Shown here in pieces: positions 3,759-13,803 of a stretch of 16,952 nt of DNA (position 1 is the stretch's first letter; every line of letters starts with the position of its first letter). Source of the DNA: Bdellovibrionota bacterium (GTDB lineage Bacteria > Bdellovibrionota > Bdellovibrionia > Bdellovibrionales > JAMPXM01). A program made the translations under genes and the position numbers. Where the stretch lies: contig CAUJGS010000111.1 of NCBI GenBank assembly GCA_963170185.1, positions 1 through 16,952 of the forward strand. Reading direction: 5' to 3'. Under the pieces are notes generated by a model. That model did not search any database. It saw nothing but the letters and a program-made list of their open reading frames with translations, and was not told the origin of the DNA.

Positions 3759-4208
3759 ATGGCCGACAACTCGGTAAACAACGACCACTCGCTACGTGAA
3801 CTCGTGGCGCAGACGTTTGTCATTTACATGAAGACCTATGCGCTTCATTGGAACTACGAAGGGCAAAAGTTTTTTGGAGTGCATTCTATGACGGAGGCCC
3901 AATACGAGGAACTCGCGGCTGCGATTGATGTTTTGGCCGAAAGGATGCGGGCCATGGGGCAGTCGACACCTGTTTCCTTGCGTCAAATCTTAGAGAGCTC
4001 GCATATGCGAGAGCTTCGCGAGGCCTCAGATGAGCAAGCACTTAAGGATTTGGCAAAATCCAATCGCCAGATCAGTCAGCTCGCTGCAAGTGTCGCGGAA
4101 ATGGCCGAGAAGGTTGGGGATCACTACACGCACGATCTCGCCGTTAGTCGAATCGGCGTTCACGATAAACACGCTTGGATGATCGAGAGTTTCTTTAAGG
4201 CGCACTAA
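3759..4208 (+). CDS. dps: Dps (DNA-binding ferritin-like protein from starved cells)
   Basis: 149 aa. The ferritin-like ferroxidase region (FVIYMKTYALHWNYEGQKFFGVHSMTEAQYEEL) matches the Dps family. A strong RBS GGAAGGAG lies 6 nt upstream of the ATG. Confidence 0.85.
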   Translation: MADNSVNNDHSLRELVAQTFVIYMKTYALHWNYEGQKFFGVHSMTEAQYEELAAAIDVLAERMRAMGQSTPVSLRQILESSHMRELREASDEQALKDLAKSNRQISQLAASVAEMAEKVGDHYTHDLAVSRIGVHDKHAWMIESFFKAH

Positions 4209-4227: not shown

Positions 4228-5598
4228 GTGAGACATCAAGTAAAACACAGAAATAAATATGCCGGTGGCCTGTCGGTTCTTGCAATGTTGGCGATGGGCG
4301 CTTGTGCAACCCATGAACGAGCGGTTTTGCCAGCGGACGCCAACCCTCAGGTGGAGATCGAGAGGGTTGAAACAGACCTAGTTGCGCTTGGTAAGCGTCA
4401 TGGCGCTTTGCTTTCGCCAGATAGCTACGAACGTGCGATCGAGTACACGAAGGACGCACGCGAAGCAATGGAAGACGGGGATCGCGAAGAGGCGTTAGAC
4501 GATGTGGCTGTCGCGCGCGGCGCTTTGGTGAAGGTCTCCGCCAATGTCGAGAACTTCACGCCGCAATTGCTACCGGTGCTTGAGGCGCGAGCGTTTGCCT
4601 TGGATGCGGGAGCCAATGTCGTAACGCGTGATTCGCTGGACGAAGCCGACAAAGATTTAAGAAGGATCGGTCACCGTATCGAAGGCGGGAAGTTCGTGAT
4701 GGATCACGAGCGCGACACGGAGCTTGCGACGAACTATCGTAGAATCGAAATCGAAGCGAGAAAGACGACGGTTCTGGGTGAGAGTCGCGAGATCTACAAA
4801 AGGGCTGTGGCCGAAGGGGCCGAGAAACACACCGCTAAGTTGGCGGCGGAGACAAAACAAGCTCTGATTTTGGCTGAGCAAGCTATAGAGAGAAGCGTGC
4901 GATCGCCTGTTGGATATCAAACCGAGGTGAAGATCGCCGAGGGGTTAAGTCGAAAGCTTCGCGATGTTCTGGCCTTGGCAAGACAGGACAAAGTCAGTGA
5001 GGAGGTCGCATTAACCTTGTGGAGCCAGAAAAATGAAATCACACGCGTGCAAGACAAGCTCGATACGCAGACGCGTTTGGTGAGTGATCAGCAGCGAGAA
5101 GTAGGCGACCTCAAGCAGGAAAATGCCGAGCTTTCCGCTAAAGAAGAGATCGATCGCAAAATCAATGCGGCTCGCGAAGGGTTTGCCGCCAATGAGGCAG
5201 AGGTCGCCAAGGTCGGGAACAATGTCGTGGTTCGTCTAAAGGACATCGGTTTCACATCTGGAAGTGCCGAGCTCAAAGTGAAATCGCTCGACACCTTGGA
5301 TAAAGTGGCGGAACTGGTGGCGCAAATGCCAGTGGCGAAAGTCGTCGTTGTCGGCCACACGGACTCCAGTGGTACTCTGAAAAAAAATATGGAGATCTCC
5401 GAGGAGCGTGCGTTGGCCGTGCGAAATTACTTCGCAAAGCAAGCGCAGTTCAAAGATGTGGAGATCGATAGCCGCGGGGTAGGTCCGCAAAGACCTATCG
5501 CACCAAATAACACGGCCGAGGGTCGCGCGGCGAACCGTAGGGTTGATGTCGTGATAGAAACCAGTGCTGGCGCTTCAGGTCGGACGGTGAGTTTGTAA
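4228..5598 (+). CDS. OmpA-family lipoprotein with a long central coiled-coil
   Basis: GTG start with RBS AAAAGGGG. The N-terminus LSVLAMLAMGAC is a signal peptide ending in Cys, so lipoprotein-like. The central region is coiled-coil rich. The C-terminus carries an OmpA-like peptidoglycan-binding domain (VVVGHTDSSG...EERALAVRNYF...NRRVDVVI). Confidence 0.8.
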   Translation: MRHQVKHRNKYAGGLSVLAMLAMGACATHERAVLPADANPQVEIERVETDLVALGKRHGALLSPDSYERAIEYTKDAREAMEDGDREEALDDVAVARGALVKVSANVENFTPQLLPVLEARAFALDAGANVVTRDSLDEADKDLRRIGHRIEGGKFVMDHERDTELATNYRRIEIEARKTTVLGESREIYKRAVAEGAEKHTAKLAAETKQALILAEQAIERSVRSPVGYQTEVKIAEGLSRKLRDVLALARQDKVSEEVALTLWSQKNEITRVQDKLDTQTRLVSDQQREVGDLKQENAELSAKEEIDRKINAAREGFAANEAEVAKVGNNVVVRLKDIGFTSGSAELKVKSLDTLDKVAELVAQMPVAKVVVVGHTDSSGTLKKNMEISEERALAVRNYFAKQAQFKDVEIDSRGVGPQRPIAPNNTAEGRAANRRVDVVIETSAGASGRTVSL

Positions 5599-5898
5599 CC
5601 AAGCTTTGAAATCGGCCAACAGTCGTTGGCCTTTTTCGCGAACTTCACTATCCAAGAGCGCCTCCATCTCGCGGGCTATACCCTCGGCTTCCGGAAAGCC
5701 AAAACTACTGAGGTTGCCCGCGAGCTGATGGCCAATACGACGAAACTCATCTCCGCTTCCAGATGTAAGACTTGCTTCTAGAACCTCGACGTCGGCCACG
5801 CGCCGGTCGAGATAACGTTCAATCAAGGCTTTTGGGAGTTCATCGTTTTCCATCCGCAATTTATAACGTGGATTTCTCGGAACTTCAAAGTCCATCAT
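5575..5898 (-). CDS. Single-domain Hpt (histidine phosphotransfer) protein
   Basis: FRRIGHQLAGNLSSFGF matches the Hpt helix consensus H-x-L/K-G/A-x-x-x-x-G with the phosphorylatable His. The start is uncertain: the track ORF begins at a TTG at 5928, and the first ATGs are at 5898 and 5895. The 3' end overlaps the convergent OmpA-like gene by 24 bp. Confidence 0.55.
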   Translation of the reverse strand: MMDFEVPRNPRYKLRMENDELPKALIERYLDRRVADVEVLEASLTSGSGDEFRRIGHQLAGNLSSFGFPEAEGIAREMEALLDSEVREKGQRLLADFKAWLQTHRPT

Positions 5899-7104: not shown

Positions 7105-7134
7105 AGACCCCGCTCATGCGGGGTCTTTGCTTTG
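7105..7134 (+). terminator. Rho-independent terminator after the OMP gene
   Basis: AGACCCCGC-TCAT-GCGGGGTCT hairpin followed by TTTGCTTTG. Confidence 0.7.
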
Positions 7135-7168
7135 CAATACTAATTCACCATCAACCAAGGAGGACACA

Positions 7169-7426
7169 ATGTCTATGAACACAAATATCGCTCAAGGCAA
7201 ATGGCGTGAGATCAAAGGTGAAATCCAGAAGGCGTGGGGCAAGCTCACAGATGACGAGCTGGAGAAGACCAAAGGCGACGCCAAAGCGATCGCGGGAATT
7301 TTGCAACAAAAGTATGGCCGTGCCGAAGAGGATTTCAGCGAAAAGCTTGGAAGCATCTTCAGCCGATTTGAAAACACCCGAGAGCGGGCGACCGAGAACT
7401 TCAAGGACACCTTGAAGCGGGTTTGA
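7169..7426 (+). CDS. CsbD-family general stress protein
   Basis: RBS AAGGAGGA. The sequence IAQGKWREIKGEIQKAWGKLTDDELEKTKGD..ILQQKYG is the typical CsbD repeat signature. Confidence 0.8.
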   Translation: MSMNTNIAQGKWREIKGEIQKAWGKLTDDELEKTKGDAKAIAGILQQKYGRAEEDFSEKLGSIFSRFENTRERATENFKDTLKRV

Positions 7427-7461
7427 AGAACGAGTTGGTGAATCAAGATACAGGAGGAAGC

Positions 7462-7749
7462 ATGTCAACAGCAGTAGAAAACACGATGTCGACTCTCAAT
7501 GGAGCGGGAAAGGTTTTGAAGCGAAAACTCAATGACGGCGATATGCCTGCGACGATCGAATCAATGGCGCACTCCGCCGGTAAGTCGCTAGGTGAGGTTG
7601 CCTCACAGTTTGTCGACTCTGCGGAAGACTACGCCGAAGAAGGTCGTCGTTACATTCGAAAAAACCCTTTGACTGGTGTCGCAGCGGCGGCAGCCGTCGG
7701 AATGATCGCGGGCGGTCTTCTCTCGACGGCGCTTCGTCGCTCGAGGTAG
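7462..7749 (+). CDS. DUF883 / ElaB-YqjD-like C-tail-anchored stress protein
   Basis: RBS CAGGAGGA. It has a C-terminal TM anchor GVAAAAAVGMIAGGLLSTAL. The overall layout matches the ElaB/YqjD/YgaM family, which is often adjacent to csbD-like genes. Confidence 0.7.
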   Translation: MSTAVENTMSTLNGAGKVLKRKLNDGDMPATIESMAHSAGKSLGEVASQFVDSAEDYAEEGRRYIRKNPLTGVAAAAAVGMIAGGLLSTALRRSR

Positions 7750-7789
7750 TCAAAACGGCTTTATCCCCAAAAAAGCCTTACCCCTCCAA

Positions 7790-7830
7790 CCCCGATCGAT
7801 GACCCTCGATCGGGGTTTCTTTTTTCTTTT
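7790..7830. terminator. Bidirectional rho-independent terminator between convergent genes
   Basis: CCCCGATCGA-TGACCC-TCGATCGGGG hairpin. It is flanked by a T-run on the plus side (TTTCTTTTTTCTTTT) and an A-run upstream (CCCCAAAAAAGCC), which reads as U-rich for the minus-strand gene. Confidence 0.7.
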
Positions 7831-7840
7831 GCGAGAGGCG

Positions 7841-9307
7841 CTAGGAAAGCAGGTTTTCGCCGGTCGCGATTTTCAGGCGCTTGTACAGAGTTTTGCGATC
7901 GACTCCGATTTCTTTAGCTGTTCGGTCTTTGGCGCCAGCATTTTTGGTTACAGCGAATTGGATGTAGGAATTGATCATGTCGTTGAGCGACGGAAGCGTC
8001 CCGCTGCAGTCGACGCGAAAGTACTGTCCTGAATCGACGGCCGATGGATGTTCAAACGAGGACTGCGCGGTTCTCGTTTGTGACTTAAGCTGGCTCTCCA
8101 TGGCGTTTGGCATAAGGTCTGCGATATCAATTTCGTTTGTTTGTGTGAGCACGGCCGCACGTTCGATCGTGTTTTCCAACTCGCGCACGTTGCCATTCCA
8201 TGGATGACTGAGAATGAAACGAACAGCCTCTTTCGTGAAGCCGGTGATCGGAGCTTGGTTCTCGGCGGCAAATTTTTTTAAAAAACCCTCTGCCAGCGGC
8301 AAGATGTCTTCTTGGCGTTCGCGAAGTGGCGGAAGGTGAATGGGAATGACATTGAGACGGAAGAAGAGATCCTCTCGGAACTGACCGGTTGCGACCATTT
8401 CAGAGAGATTTTTATGAGTGGCGGAGACCAGTCGACAGTTGATATTGCGGTCCTGATTCTCACCCACGCGACGAATCTTTCGTTCCTGTAGGACGCGAAG
8501 AAGTTTTGCTTGAAGTGGAAGACTTAGGTCACCGATCTCATCAAGAAAGAGGGTGCCATCTTGTGCTTCTTCGAAGAGGCCAAGTTTTTTTTCGTTGGCT
8601 CCTGTGAAGGCCCCTTTTGCATGGCCAAAGAGTTCGGATTCCAGAAGGGTCTCCGGAATAGCCGAACAGTTGATGGCTATGAAGGGGCCTTTTTTGTTGA
8701 GGCTTGAAGTGTGGATGAAGCGTGCGAAGACTTCTTTTCCAGTTCCGCTTTCGCCGGTGATGATAATGTTTGATCGGCTTTTGGCGACCCGCTTGGCGAG
8801 ATCAACAGCGGCCAGAAAGGCGGCGCTCTTTCCGATCATGCCATTTGCCGACGCGGCTTTGGTTTCGATCTGCGATTGTAGATTTACGAGGTCTCGACTG
8901 AGTGTTTTGATATGGAGAGCTCGTTCAACGGCGATTTGCAGTTGCTGCAAATTAAGTGGCTTGATTAGGAAGTCGTAAGCTCCTTCTTTGATGGCCTCGA
9001 GAGCCACTTCGGTGCTTCGGTTTGTCGTGATCAATATGACCGGCGTCTGCGGGGCTGTCTCTTTCATCTGCGCGGTGAGTTCGACGCCCGACATTTTTGG
9101 GAGGCGCAGGTCCGATAAAATCACGTCCCAGGTTTCGCTGGATTTCTCACCGTCGGCGATGGCGGATTCGGCATCGCCGAAGCAGATGACTTCGAATCCG
9201 CGCGGCTTAAAAAACGCTGAGATCAGATCCTGAGTGTCGAGATCGTCATCGACCACGACAATTTTTTTCTTCTCCTTTTCGGTCTTTATATCTGCGCGTG
9301 CGTCCAT
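7841..9307 (-). CDS. NtrC-family sigma-54-dependent response regulator (REC + AAA+ + Fis-type HTH)
   Basis: The N-terminal receiver domain (KIVVVDDD...ILSDLRLPKMSG) has the acidic pocket and phospho-acceptor Asp. The AAA+ region has Walker A GESGTGKE, the GAFTGA sigma-54 contact motif, and an arginine finger region. The C-terminus has an HTH. RBS GAGGAG upstream. Confidence 0.9.
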   Translation of the reverse strand: MDARADIKTEKEKKKIVVVDDDLDTQDLISAFFKPRGFEVICFGDAESAIADGEKSSETWDVILSDLRLPKMSGVELTAQMKETAPQTPVILITTNRSTEVALEAIKEGAYDFLIKPLNLQQLQIAVERALHIKTLSRDLVNLQSQIETKAASANGMIGKSAAFLAAVDLAKRVAKSRSNIIITGESGTGKEVFARFIHTSSLNKKGPFIAINCSAIPETLLESELFGHAKGAFTGANEKKLGLFEEAQDGTLFLDEIGDLSLPLQAKLLRVLQERKIRRVGENQDRNINCRLVSATHKNLSEMVATGQFREDLFFRLNVIPIHLPPLRERQEDILPLAEGFLKKFAAENQAPITGFTKEAVRFILSHPWNGNVRELENTIERAAVLTQTNEIDIADLMPNAMESQLKSQTRTAQSSFEHPSAVDSGQYFRVDCSGTLPSLNDMINSYIQFAVTKNAGAKDRTAKEIGVDRKTLYKRLKIATGENLLS

Positions 9308-11045: not shown

Positions 11046-12164
11046 TCACTTTTGGCGTGATACCAGATTCATCAATTGTTCGAGACCACCGACAACATTG
11101 ATTGCCTGAACTTTGTCGCTCACCTTCTCGATGCTTTCCATCTCCTTTAAGCGCATGAGAACGGGGCTCGATTCGATCAGCCTTGCTGTGTTCAGCAGTG
11201 AGCGTGTAGCGGCGACCTCTTCGCGTCGGCGAATGAGATTTGCCTGAGCTTGTTTTTCAGACGCTACGACTTGGTTTAAGATCTCGCGGATATCTCCAGG
11301 AAGAATGATGTCGCGTACACCGGTGCTCGTCAGTTCTATGCCGACTCGGACGGCAAAGGGTGCCGCTTGTTCAAGGACCTCTGTTCCGAGAGATTCTTTC
11401 GTCGCCAGAACTTCGTCTAATGTTCGGACGCCGATGGCCTTTCGCAGTGCGAACTGTAGCTCTTTGTAGAGCAGGTCCTTAGCGTCTTGTGATTCCGTTA
11501 CGAGTTTTTCGGCATCGGAGACGCGATAGTGCGCATCGAGATTTAGCCGAATCGAAACGCGATCTTTTGTGAGGATCTCTTGCCCGCTGACTTCGAGGTT
11601 CTGAGTGCGCATGTCGATAGCCACGACATTGAGAGTGGATTTCCCTTTCCAGTAGGTGCAAGGGCCTGGTGCGAGCTTTTTTACTAGGCGCCCGTCGGCA
11701 AACAGCAGGCCGAGTGAACCTTCTGGGATGATCTTGTGAATGAACTCTTCGGAATCAGGCTGTTGGTGCATCAGCAACTTCGCCTGTTCGGCGGGGATCT
11801 CTTGCCAATCGGAAAATGCAATGTATTCGACCCGAACGTCTTTGAGGATTTTCCAGAAGAGCTTTCGTTGCCCGGGGCCGACGATGCGATGGAATTTTTC
11901 ATCGACGTAGATGAGGGCGGTTTGGTGGTCTGAGGTGTCAACGACAGTGAAGTACTTTGTCACCAGTTGCGGATGCCATTTGATAAGTGCAGAGGCCCAC
12001 GGTCCGAGAAACTCCGGCTCGTTGACGTCGTATTTCAGGACGGTTTCTGGTGAGATTCCGAATGAACTGAACGTCCAATGGCGACCGGGTTCTAGGATTC
12101 CAGTGATGCGACCGTTTTTGATTTTGAGACCGCGTTGTGTTTCGGTGATTTCAACTTTTTTCAT
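11046..12164 (-). CDS. Soluble SPFH/band-7 (stomatin/prohibitin-like) domain protein with a ~170-aa N-terminal domain of unknown function; last gene of the rtcB transcription unit
   Basis: The C-terminal half shows the SPFH pattern (LTKDRVSIRLNLDAHYRV.D..K......D....L.......LR...G..TLDEVL..KE....EVLE........GIEL...GVRDIILPGDI...L.......AEKQA.A..I...E). No N-terminal TM helix is present, which is unusual for this family. RBS GAGG lies 7 nt upstream. It is on the same strand as, and downstream of, rtcB and the ncRNA. Confidence 0.7.
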   Translation of the reverse strand: MKKVEITETQRGLKIKNGRITGILEPGRHWTFSSFGISPETVLKYDVNEPEFLGPWASALIKWHPQLVTKYFTVVDTSDHQTALIYVDEKFHRIVGPGQRKLFWKILKDVRVEYIAFSDWQEIPAEQAKLLMHQQPDSEEFIHKIIPEGSLGLLFADGRLVKKLAPGPCTYWKGKSTLNVVAIDMRTQNLEVSGQEILTKDRVSIRLNLDAHYRVSDAEKLVTESQDAKDLLYKELQFALRKAIGVRTLDEVLATKESLGTEVLEQAAPFAVRVGIELTSTGVRDIILPGDIREILNQVVASEKQAQANLIRRREEVAATRSLLNTARLIESSPVLMRLKEMESIEKVSDKVQAINVVGGLEQLMNLVSRQK

Positions 12165-12198
12165 ATATACCTCGTGTGAGTTTTTTGTTTAAGCAAAC

Positions 12199-12241
12199 CT
12201 CGGGGGCGGGGCCGTCGGCGTTTGGCCGCAAAGCCCCCAAG
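12199..12241 (-). terminator. GC-rich hairpin (candidate intrinsic terminator or attenuator, or the ncRNA 3' end) between the tRNA-like RNA and the SPFH gene
   Basis: On the minus strand: CTTGGGGGC-(25 nt, GC-rich)-GCCCCCGAG, then GTTTGCTT. The stem pairs fully only in minus-strand RNA (a T-G wobble there would be a C-A mismatch on the plus strand). The U-tract is weak. Confidence 0.3.
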
Positions 12242-12280
12242 TTTGGGAGTTCCGAATGAGAGTGCGGCCTTGCCATCGGC

Positions 12281-12425
12281 TTTGCTCTCAAGCATTCCTC
12301 CATGGACATTCATTCGAGAAACGACTTCGTTTTCAAAGTACGGACACTCTACCAGCTGAGTTACTGAAGGTGACTTCAGGCGGGAATCGAACCCGCGACA
12401 ATCCCTGTTTCTCAAGAGAAGCAAA
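12281..12425 (-). ncRNA. Permuted tRNA-like structured RNA (Y RNA / YrlA-like tRNA mimic) encoded between rtcB and the SPFH gene
   Basis: Minus-strand read, in tRNA numbering. Anticodon-stem 3' strand AGGGA, then variable loop TTGTC. T-arm GCGGG-TTCGATT-CCCGC (T54 T55 C56 G57 A58 present). The acceptor 3' strand CTGAAG is joined directly to the 5' strand CTTCAG through a TCAC tetraloop, so there is no discriminator or CCA. Then U8 A9, and D-arm ACTC-AGCTGGTA-GAGT (A14, G18 G19, A21 present). G26, then TCCGT, which pairs with AGGGA with one mismatch. The module is enclosed by a 7-bp helix GAGAAAC/GTTTCTC and an outer 9-bp helix TTTGCT(T)CTC/GAGAGCAAA with a single bulged U. The ends are approximate: structured sequence extends from the rtcB stop (12492) to about 12190. 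Confidence 0.55.
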
Positions 12426-12492
12426 TTCGGCATACGCTCTCGGCAGGGCCGTGCGCACCCGCTAGGGTTTTGAACCTAGGCGATAGAACTCG

Positions 12493-13698
12493 CTATCCCT
12501 TAACGCACACCACCTGTTTGAGGGTGTGTACGATTTCAACCAAATCTGACTGTGCGGCCATCACTGCATCGATGTCCTTGTAGGCGGCGGGTGATTCGTC
12601 GATCACTCCATCGTCCTTTCGGCATTCGACCTCAGCTGTGGCTCGCTTGTGATCTTCAAGCGAGATCACTGCTCGCGCTTTTGTGCGCGACATTTTTCGT
12701 CCGGCTCCATGAGAGCAGCTGCAGAAGCTCTCTTGGTTGCCGAGCCCTCGCACGATGAAAGACTTCGCTCCCATGGATCCCGGGATAATTCCAAGATCCC
12801 CCTCGCGTGCTCGGACGGCTCCTTTGCGTGTAACATAAACGTTCTCTCCGTAGTGATGTTCAAGCTCGACGTAGTTGTGATGGCAATTCACAGCCCGCTC
12901 GAGAAGCGTGAAGGGCGGAATGCCTTTTTGGTGTCGGAGTCCCGCCACAACCCGGTTCATCATGAGCTCGCGATTCAGGCGCGCGTAGTTTTGAGCCCAG
13001 TACACGGCTTCGACGTAGTCGTTGAAGTGTTCGGATCCCTCGGAGAGATACGCGAGATCTTCGTTCGGTAATTGAATGAACCATTTTTCCATTTCCTTCT
13101 TCGCCAGTTCGATGAAGTAGTGGCCAATCGCATTCCCGACGCCGCGCGATCCGCTGTGGAGCATGATCCAGACGTCTTGATTTTCATCAAGGCAGAGTTC
13201 GATGAAGTGATTGCCGCCGCCGAGTGTTCCAAGCTGCTTGTAGGTTTTTGTCTCGCGGATGCGAGGGTGGCGTTCGATAATCGATTTATAGCCGGTCTCC
13301 ATCTGGGCCCATGCCTCGAGGCATTCCTTTGGTACGGCTTTGTTGTGATAGCCGTAACCGACGGGAACGTCTCGCTCGATCTGGCCGCGGATGGAAGAAA
13401 GAGAGTCGGGCAGATCGGTTGCTCGCAGTGAAGTCTTCTGTGCCATCATCCCGCAGCCGATATCGACGCCGACGGCTGCGGGAATGATTGCGCCTTTAGT
13501 TGGAATCACGCTTCCAACTGTGGTGCCGCGGCCTGCGTGGACGTCGGGCATGGCTGCGACCCATTTATGAATAAAGGGAAGGTCGGCAAGTTTTTTGAGT
13601 TGGTTGCGAGCTTCGTCCTCGAACAAGACTCCTTTGGTCCAAGTCTTGATCAGGCCACCATTTTGAGATTCGAGGACTTCGTATTTCTGCTTCGACAT
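12493..13698 (-). CDS. rtcB: RtcB RNA 3'-phosphate/2',3'-cyclic-phosphate ligase
   Basis: 401 aa from the ATG at 13698, with RBS AAGGAG 7 nt upstream. The annotated TTG at 13719 adds 7 aa with no RBS. From memory (not verifiable here), it aligns along its whole length with E. coli RtcB (408 aa). Recognisable blocks include MPDVH.G.G...GSVIPTKGAIIPAAVGVDIGCGM, GTLG.GNHFIE.CLDE..DVWIMLHSGSRG.GNAIG.YFI, NCHHNYV, YVTRKGAV.AR.G..GIIPGSMGAKSFIVRGLGN.ESFCSCSHGAGR.MSRTKA and the C-terminus YKDIDAVMAAQSDLVE...L.QVVCVKG. Confidence 0.95.
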   Translation of the reverse strand: MSKQKYEVLESQNGGLIKTWTKGVLFEDEARNQLKKLADLPFIHKWVAAMPDVHAGRGTTVGSVIPTKGAIIPAAVGVDIGCGMMAQKTSLRATDLPDSLSSIRGQIERDVPVGYGYHNKAVPKECLEAWAQMETGYKSIIERHPRIRETKTYKQLGTLGGGNHFIELCLDENQDVWIMLHSGSRGVGNAIGHYFIELAKKEMEKWFIQLPNEDLAYLSEGSEHFNDYVEAVYWAQNYARLNRELMMNRVVAGLRHQKGIPPFTLLERAVNCHHNYVELEHHYGENVYVTRKGAVRAREGDLGIIPGSMGAKSFIVRGLGNQESFCSCSHGAGRKMSRTKARAVISLEDHKRATAEVECRKDDGVIDESPAAYKDIDAVMAAQSDLVEIVHTLKQVVCVKG

Positions 13699-13786: not shown

Positions 13787-13803
13787 TTGCAGTCGTGATG
13801 CCA
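13787..13803 (-). promoter_or_regulatory. Sigma-54 (-24/-12) promoter for rtcB
   Basis: The minus strand reads TGGCAT-CACGACT-CTGCA. The GG and GC dinucleotides are spaced exactly as in the consensus TGGCACG-N4-TTGCW. It lies about 90 nt upstream of the rtcB ATG and points toward rtcB, divergent from rtcR. This matches the known RtcR/sigma-54 control of rtcBA in E. coli. Confidence 0.55.

Follow-up and report, generated by a model that had tools for sequence, protein, structure and literature searches.

A circularly permuted tRNA-like RNA between rtcB and a Band-7 gene in a Bdellovibrionota bacterium

Introduction

Loci that combine RtcB, a Band-7 protein and a tRNA-like RNA (b7a-tRNA) were described by Burroughs & Aravind 2016, according to the account given in Wang et al. 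2018 (bioRxiv 10.1101/312249), and in the same account the Y RNA YrlA occasionally adjoins a Band-7 protein. Nearly all YrlAs lie less than 4 kb from rsr and on the same strand, the motif GNCGAAN0-1G has been proposed as the Rsr contact, and the junctions of tandem tRNAs can mimic the YrlA arrangement (Chen et al. 2014, PMC4201824). YrlA's tRNA-like domain might competitively inhibit an anticodon nuclease, and RtcR has been proposed to sense tRNA fragments ending in a 2',3'-cyclic phosphate (Hughes et al. 2020, PMC7790460). No mechanism is established for the Y-like RNAs of bacteria, nor for the tRNA-like RNAs associated with Band-7. Here we analyse a stretch of 16,952 nucleotides from a Bdellovibrionota bacterium (contig CAUJGS010000111.1, hereafter the window), in which the gap between the RNA ligase gene rtcB and the following SPFH/Band-7 gene encodes an RNA with a circularly permuted tRNA-like core.

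As far as the account in Wang et al. 2018 (bioRxiv 10.1101/312249) goes, RtcB-Band-7 loci with a tRNA-like RNA and YrlA beside Band-7 are known, and the window is a new example of them; an earlier note on this DNA had therefore overstated the novelty of the element. The additions made here are a near-universal 5' domain of the RNA (motif A), its linkage to Band-7 rather than to RtcB and the occurrence of a natural pair of linear and permuted forms, all of which may already be contained in the 2016 description.

A permuted tRNA-like core in the gap between rtcB and the Band-7 gene

In the window, rtcB (minus strand) is divergent from rtcR (plus strand), and the Band-7 gene (minus strand) lies 328 nt beyond rtcB. 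This gap (12165-12492) agrees with the non-coding interval of about 330 nt that the earlier note had placed between rtcB and the next gene. A tRNA core in permuted order had been claimed for its minus strand, and all of the named elements were found in their places, including the tertiary-interaction bases. The order of the core is the 3' half of an anticodon-like stem, a variable loop (UUGUC), the T arm, a closed acceptor hairpin, U8-A9, the D arm and the 5' half of the anticodon-like stem. Bases for the tertiary interactions are U8, A14, G18G19, A21, T54-T55-C56 and A58, plus a G15/C48 pair. The sequence also bears out that the core is devoid of an anticodon loop, discriminator or CCA. The core and the helices around it are the following.

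12338..12409, minus strand: permuted tRNA-like core (Rfam YrlA 46.4 bits at 12335-12410; our own covariance model (CM) R2 78.6 bits; covariation in four helices)
12402-12406 with 12340-12344, minus strand: open anticodon-like stem (sequence and fold)
12396-12380, minus strand: T arm, GCGGG/UUCGAUU/CCCGC (read from the sequence)
12379-12364, minus strand: closed acceptor-like hairpin with a 4-nt loop, CUGAAG-UCAC-CUUCAG (read from the sequence)
12363-12362, minus strand: U8-A9 (read from the sequence)
12361-12346, minus strand: D arm, ACUC/AGCUGGUA/GAGU (read from the sequence)
12324..12339, minus strand: side hairpin of 6 bp directly 3' of the core, ACUUUG-AAAA-CGAAGU (minimum free energy (MFE) fold)
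12314..12415, minus strand: 9-bp outer helix, UUGAGAAAC (12407-12415) with GUUUCUCGA (12314-12322), which closes the core and the side hairpin (MFE and centroid folds)

A cloverleaf-like shape is adopted by the 106-nt unit by energy alone (MFE -33.9 kcal/mol, z -2.69), with 2 of 200 shuffles reaching an equal value. The flanking helices, described earlier as a 7-bp helix plus a 9-bp helix with a bulged U, were only partly borne out and take the form of the 9-bp outer helix and the 6-bp side hairpin with its AAAA loop. At the side-hairpin position, the hairpins of relatives have an anticodon-like loop of 7 nt, which is of the form CU-NNN-AA with varying 'anticodons' (CUGUGAA, CUCAUAA, CUCACAC, CUAUUCA and CUGAAAC) and in place of which the window has AAAA. 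The outer helix is without comparative support because single-sequence folds of the diverged relatives gave no shared counterpart and the helix is unchanged in the 99%-identical relative L095.

No tRNA or tmRNA gene was called by ARAGORN in the window, no Rfam family reached its gathering score in a search of the window and the Rfam tRNA family did not match the core. A permissive Rfam search identified YrlA (RF02553) with 46.4 bits and an E value of 2.5e-9 over model positions 17-92 of 114 (gathering score 69), which, together with covariation in the four helices, is in line with the YrlA-type architecture proposed in the earlier note. The tmRNA matches in the same search span only the T arm of 17-18 nt.

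Conservation of the core and of the whole gap

Homologues were gathered by means of the Band-7 protein and comprised the loci of close relatives, 80 genome loci (L007-L086) and 80 metagenome loci (L096-L175). Relatives were found by alignment-based scans, single-sequence Band-7 scans of genome and metagenome contigs having given none. The Band-7 protein is unchanged on six metagenome contigs, followed by relatives at 97%, at 61-48% and then many at about 45% identity. All close relatives with enough flanking sequence keep the order of rtcR, rtcB, gap and Band-7 gene, with a permuted module present in every gap.

Ten homologous modules were aligned with MAFFT only, and all four helices are kept in this alignment with 93.9% of the cells paired, as compared to 33-48% in controls with slid partners. 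The earlier note had looked to compensatory changes in orthologous gaps for evidence of the fold, and such changes are abundant: 15 of the 20 pairs are changed on both sides and none of 500 shuffles was as good. The sequence of the acceptor hairpin differs in nearly every relative, and the loop that closes it in the relatives is often a GNRA loop. When searched with the Rfam YrlA model, eight relatives scored 34-48 bits over the tRNA-like part alone. The gap thus encodes a conserved RNA with a tRNA-like fold in rearranged order, far beyond what chance would give.

Comparison with L095, whose Band-7 protein is 97% identical, revealed 8 differences over the 328 nt of the gap versus 46 differences at 717 third codon positions of the flanking genes (6.4%; Fisher p 0.006). 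The whole gap is under purifying selection. Of the L095 changes, one makes A-U out of a G-U pair in motif A and another falls within the D loop's variable part. The remainder of the gap is occupied by a further structured part.

12165..12313, minus strand: structured 3' part of the gap, reaching the Band-7 start codon (MFE fold; 3 substitutions versus L095)

In the MFE fold this part forms a long hairpin, GAAUGCUUGAGAGC...GCACUCUCAUUC, followed by a G+C-rich hairpin ahead of the ribosome-binding site. A GGAG...CUCCC closing pair recurs in three relatives (L087, L090 and L094). No conserved structure could be defined for the 3' part from its poor alignment (39% column identity), and it may be a further RNA domain or the leader of the Band-7 mRNA.

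Motif A is the 5' domain of a larger RNA

Upstream of the core on the same strand, a three-way-junction RNA domain, which we term motif A, extends from the rtcB stop codon towards the core. The earlier note had missed this domain. Its parts are given below.

12418..12496, minus strand: motif A, three-way-junction RNA domain (covariation; CM R1 63.6 bits in the window)
12486-12492 with 12422-12428, minus strand: helix P1, with its 5' strand next to or overlapping the rtcB stop codon
12475-12479 with 12462-12466, minus strand: helix H1, with a T-loop-like loop starting with UUC, UUCAAAAC
12453-12459 with 12429-12437, minus strand: helix P2, near-invariant GGUGCG...CGUA(UG)CC, containing a bulged UG and a conserved G-U pair

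Motif A shows covariation in a MAFFT alignment of 19 sequences, which is 89.4% paired and in which 12 of the 19 pairs carry compensatory changes. CM R1 was built from this alignment and has exactly one match per locus in 67 related loci (of L007-L094) and in the window; on the CM-fitted alignment of those loci, 17 of the 19 pairs covary. Matches to CM R1 are also present in 63 of the 80 independent metagenome loci (L096-L175). Altogether, motif A lies 5' of a Band-7 homologue and on the same strand in 131 of 168 sources (the window and 167 related loci). Viral DNA gave no match to CM R1 in 80 loci (743 kb) that had been pre-selected for both sequence boxes of motif A, where the box matches are due to chance. 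Motif A has no Rfam match at an E value of 10 or below.

In the window the permuted core begins 8 nt past motif A. The core is the middle part of a larger RNA which has motif A as its 5' domain. Motif A is absent from Rfam. Its covariance model would be of use in annotation, where it would flag such loci reliably.

Linear, tandem and permuted forms across loci

Most relatives carry a linear form in the place of the permuted core. Of the 61 genome loci in which motif A is present, 55 have a linear tRNA-like gene called by ARAGORN, at a median distance of 13 nt past motif A, and in the genome loci the Band-7 start follows the linear gene at a median of 369 nt. Within the 700 nt 5' of Band-7 in L009-L086, the 'anticodons' of the linear forms are diverse (CAU, GAU, UUG, AAG, UGG, ACA and others), about ten of the loops are malformed or of the wrong size and several of the genes encode CCA. 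The diversity of the 'anticodons' and the malformed loops indicate that variation is tolerated in the anticodon region, whereas the cloverleaf is otherwise preserved. The same slot is thus linear in most lineages and permuted in the window, a clean natural experiment on which part of the RNA does the work.

The permuted form, counted at CM R2 scores of at least 66 bits, is confined to the clade of the window and two Candidatus Moduliflexus loci; this threshold was applied because CM R2 also matches tandem tRNA-like junctions and tRNA arrays at 20-62 bits. In the two Moduliflexus loci (L007 405-560 and L008 3482-3640) a permuted module is followed by a linear unit. Their permuted module has a 7-bp open stem and then ACCA, whereas the linear unit has a 3-bp acceptor stem, a CUCAUAA loop and an Rfam tRNA score of 51 bits. 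After the linear unit comes a structured region of about 330 nt with a U-run at its end, and then the Band-7 gene.

Two abutting tRNA-like modules, 0-4 nt apart, were observed in L100 (926-1130), L156 (986-1180), L150, L153, L166, L024 and L078, and in L087 (5714-5861) two modules are arranged head to tail and both are permuted. Where two modules meet in tandem, pairing is possible between the acceptor 3' strand of the first and the acceptor 5' strand of the second. Such a junction is therefore already in permuted order, and it is plausible that the permuted form arose when a module was duplicated in tandem and the outer halves were then lost.

An extra T-arm-like minihelix (e.g. GCGGUUCGAAUCCGC) is present 3' of the tRNA-like gene in gammaproteobacterial loci, 100-150 nt away in L014, L038, L050, L056, L072 and L080, and L091 has one as well (5585-5625). 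As the minihelix is recurrent, these leaders hold more tRNA-derived pieces than the single call made by ARAGORN. L092 (7300-7329, minus strand) has, about 200 nt 3' of the Band-7 gene, a tmRNA 3' end (Rfam 41.3 bits) that is truncated where the contig ends and is probably unrelated.

Association of the RNA with the Band-7 gene

The gene that follows the RNA in the window, and which is its most consistent partner across loci, had not been recognised in the earlier note.

11046..12164, minus strand: SPFH/Band-7 ('slipin family') gene, 372 aa (Pfam Band_7)

The protein, soluble and without a predicted membrane segment, consists of an extra N-terminal beta-rich part (residues 1-140), an SPFH domain and long C-terminal helices. 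Foldseek searches with a model of the protein returned the major vault protein among the matches, in alignments of 426-485 columns, and stomatin-type SPFH proteins were matched better than the vault protein.

RtcB is found within 4 kb in about 20 of the 80 genome loci, where it is usually downstream of Band-7, and RtcR in very few. About 60 of these 80 loci, which contain Band-7 by construction and the RNA in most cases, have no RtcB within 4 kb. The order rtcB-RNA-Band-7 with a divergent rtcR is typical only of the clade of the window, in which close members keep rtcR-rtcB-RNA-Band-7, and of a few other loci (L056 and L072). Across loci, the RNA goes with Band-7 and not with RtcB or RtcR. This redirects further work to the SPFH protein, for example to PaFlo8 (PA14_60630), an SPFH gene inside the rtc locus of Pseudomonas aeruginosa which was reported in a 2026 survey that makes no mention of an RNA (PMC13086221). 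A protein of the HNH endonuclease family, about 200-250 aa in length, is a recurrent neighbour of Band-7 (L070 5125-5865, plus strand, and ten other genome loci), and in L070 its gene sits between Band-7 and RtcB.

Comparison with known tRNA-like RNAs

The RNA of the window resembles YrlA (RF02553) in its permuted T arm, closed acceptor-like stem-loop, D arm and open anticodon-like stem that continues into flanking helices, in the conserved tertiary-interaction bases and in the genomic tie to rtcB and rtcR. It differs from YrlA in a score below the 69-bit threshold and in the lack of a matched terminal stem: YrlA model positions 1-16 and 93-114 are unmatched in the window, and the terminal stem is also unmatched in seven relatives. 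Instead, the window RNA has motif A as its 5' domain, an SPFH/Band-7 gene as its neighbour and a side hairpin at the junction. YrlA is in addition an RNA to which Rsr binds and which TruB and DusA modify. The sequence GCCGAA is present at 12430-12425, inside a helix of motif A, and is followed by a 3-nt spacer (UUUG follows); the relatives keep only GCCG. As stated in the earlier note, there is no TROVE/Rsr domain in any open reading frame (ORF) of the window, nor did the gene tables of L001, L087, L088, L091 and L092 show one over a distance of about 6 kb. Because no TROVE gene is nearby, the spacer after GCCGAA is too long and the motif belongs to the motif A helix with only GCCG kept in relatives, membership in YrlA proper is not established though the fold is the same.

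With the b7a-tRNAs, the RNA shares the slot upstream of an orthologous Band-7 gene on the same strand, in the window beside rtcB, and the sequence style of the T arm, D arm and variable loop; in the loci surveyed, motif A, as defined here, precedes both. In contrast, the b7a-tRNA is a linear cloverleaf that is called by tRNA finders, often with an encoded CCA and with a 7-nt anticodon loop, whereas the RNA of the window is circularly permuted, has a closed acceptor end and no anticodon loop, and is not called by tRNA finders.

Permuted tRNA genes (e.g. of the red alga Cyanidioschyzon merolae) and the two-piece permuted tmRNA likewise encode the 3' half (T arm and acceptor 3' strand) before the 5' half (acceptor 5' strand and D arm). 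After processing, these genes give either a tRNA used in decoding or a tmRNA that carries a tag reading frame, whereas the RNA of the window has a stable 4-nt acceptor loop and is devoid of an anticodon loop, discriminator, CCA or tag. As for the vault particle, which is composed of the major vault protein, vault RNA and the TROVE protein TEP1, the comparison gave no evidence of RNA homology, and the system in the window is known from its genes alone.

Proposed role of the RNA and alternative explanations

On balance, we lean towards the view that the multi-domain non-coding RNA, made up of motif A, the permuted tRNA-like core and the structured 3' part, is a permuted, YrlA-type, Band-7-associated RNA and the partner of the Band-7 protein. 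This view is based on the fold, the compensatory changes, the fixed place after motif A and upstream of Band-7 on the same strand, and the presence of a linear form in most relatives. The RNA would probably be made from an RtcR-dependent sigma-54 promoter along with rtcB and the Band-7 gene, and would probably be the cognate partner of the Band-7 protein. The latter is predicted to assemble into ring- or cage-like oligomers, in the manner of the vault protein and of other SPFH proteins. The likeliest protein-binding handle would be motif A with its near-invariant bulged helix. The tRNA-shaped elbow, formed by the T loop, the D loop and the stacked acceptor helix, may recruit or compete for tRNA-recognising factors during RNA damage, with RtcB, processing or modifying enzymes and tRNA-cleaving toxins as candidates. 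Since both the linear and the permuted forms are tolerated and the anticodon is hypervariable or absent, the elbow and the acceptor stack seem to matter rather than free ends, CCA or decoding. We infer that the likely role is that of an RNA partner of an SPFH scaffold in RNA repair.

Several points weigh against a partnership of this kind. The RNA is always located in the 5' leader of Band-7, so that a purely cis-regulatory role fits the synteny equally well, and the N-terminal domain of the Band-7 protein has no demonstrated RNA-binding fold. The b7a-tRNAs are described in Wang et al. 2018 (bioRxiv 10.1101/312249) as computational predictions without experimental validation. Sampling of loci through Band-7 partly builds in the observation that the RNA tracks Band-7, the usual absence of RtcB and RtcR being an independent fact.

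A wider reading, which we put forward tentatively, is that a larger RNA class, curated in no RNA library and composed of motif A, one or more tRNA-like modules (linear, tandem or permuted) and a long structured 3' part, is the obligate partner of a soluble, vault-like SPFH cage, and that the two may constitute a bacterial vault-like ribonucleoprotein that acts in RNA-damage responses largely independently of RtcB. A link between bacterial Band-7/TROVE systems and vaults was reportedly drawn by Burroughs and Aravind in 2016. If the vault-like reading is true, the existence of a naturally permuted form would show that the tRNA elbow, and not the ends or the anticodon, is what the cage-RNA particle uses.

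It seems unlikely that the RNA is solely a cis-acting structured leader of the Band-7 mRNA, possibly bound by Band-7 or by a tRNA-binding factor, which would govern translation, stability or read-through into the Band-7 gene and would yield no separate product. Wherever the RNA is found it is upstream of the Band-7 gene and shares its strand, which fits such a leader, as do a hairpin and U-run shortly before the Band-7 start in L093 and L094 and the G+C-rich hairpin ahead of the ribosome-binding site in the window. However, simple terminator-like sites are present in only 17 of 88 loci and are missing from the window, 170-400 nt separate the tRNA-like part from the Band-7 start codon, and the linear relatives look like complete tRNAs, several with an encoded CCA, as a rule a sign of release by RNase P and RNase Z; a cis role would also be compatible with a trans-acting product. 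An ordinary YrlA Y RNA, working with a Ro60/Rsr encoded elsewhere in the genome and tethering it to an effector as in Deinococcus and Salmonella, is quite improbable. YrlA is the only Rfam family that resembles the RNA of the window, the GCCGAA at 12430-12425 resembles the proposed Rsr-contact motif and the genome is known only within the 17-kb window and the 27-kb contig. Yet the YrlA score is below the gathering threshold with only the tRNA-like part matched (17-92), the terminal stem is unmatched in the window as well as in the seven relatives, the UUUG after GCCGAA makes the spacer too long in what is a part of the motif A helix kept only as GCCG, and TROVE is absent from the window ORFs and from the tables of the five relatives when nearly all YrlAs are less than 4 kb from rsr (PMC4201824).

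We give little credence to a decoy or sensor, by which the RNA would competitively inhibit a tRNA-cleaving toxin or, as suggested in the earlier note, serve as a built-in ligand of the RtcR CARF domain. The proposals on nuclease inhibition by YrlA and on sensing by RtcR (Hughes et al. 2020, PMC7790460) favour this idea, and hypervariability of the anticodon loops, as seen in the linear relatives, could be expected of an arms race. Since the module of the window has no anticodon loop and its side hairpin has the loop AAAA, it cannot imitate the substrate of an anticodon nuclease, and since RtcR and RtcB are absent within 4 kb of the RNA in about 60 of the 80 RNA and Band-7 loci, sensing by RtcR cannot be its general role. 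The companion proposal of a guide for RtcB is disfavoured as a general role in the same way, no RtcB lying within 4 kb in those loci. That the core is non-functional, whether as a decayed tRNA gene, an integration-site remnant, a tandem-tRNA junction or part of a 90-aa ORF, is barely credible. Tandem-tRNA junctions can indeed mimic YrlA (PMC4201824) and score 30-62 bits with CM R2, and a mechanically called ORF spans the region of the core. But the window holds no tRNA gene, a 4-nt loop (often GNRA in relatives) closes the acceptor hairpin, the four helices covary, the core keeps a fixed place with respect to motif A and Band-7, and the ten aligned modules are not recent copies of one sequence as their associated proteins are 44-61% identical. 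A module conserved and covarying in relatives is therefore not a decayed tRNA, such as the earlier note had considered, nor an integration remnant or a piece of the 90-aa ORF. Readings as a tRNA remnant or tmRNA are ruled out by the negative ARAGORN search, the T-arm-only tmRNA match and the covariation. The 90-aa ORF itself (12161-12433, minus strand), which overlaps the Band-7 start in ATGA, matches nothing in Pfam, lacks an equivalent call in L087, L088, L090 and L092, and is probably spurious.

Gene layout, promoter and neighbouring genes

The RNA-repair genes upstream of the RNA and the promoter-like site between them are the following.

12493..13698, minus strand: rtcB RNA ligase, 401 aa, ATG at 13698 after AAGGAG (Pfam RtcB 431 bits)
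13788..13803, minus strand: sigma-54-type promoter-like site 5' of rtcB, TGGCAT-N5-CTGCA (consensus match only, read by eye)
13940..15532, plus strand: rtcR, sigma-54 activator with CARF-type RtcR domain (Pfam RtcR 245 bits, Sigma54_activat 166 bits)

The gene table of L001 has an identical 401-aa rtcB call, and the rtcR product scores 757 bits with NCBIfam RNA_repair_RtcR against a cut-off of 650. The earlier claim that the element belongs to the rtcB unit is consistent with RtcR and the sigma-54-type site upstream, which is a consensus match only; a pattern search with the exact sigma-54 consensus gave nothing relevant. No sigma-70-like promoter was found on either strand between 10900 and 14100, and no minus-strand terminator-like site was found in the window between rtcB and the Band-7 gene. 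The simplest reading is a single RtcR-dependent transcript that would comprise rtcB, the gap and the Band-7 gene.

Past the Band-7 gene, a divergently oriented gene for an outer-membrane beta-barrel protein adjoins it, and beyond this gene lie a second sigma-54 response-regulator activator (7841-9307, minus strand, in the stretch 7127-9307) and small stress-type genes (CsbD-like, DUF883 and Dps/ferritin-like; 7127-9307 and 3759-4208 of the window). The neighbourhood of the Band-7 gene looks stress-related.

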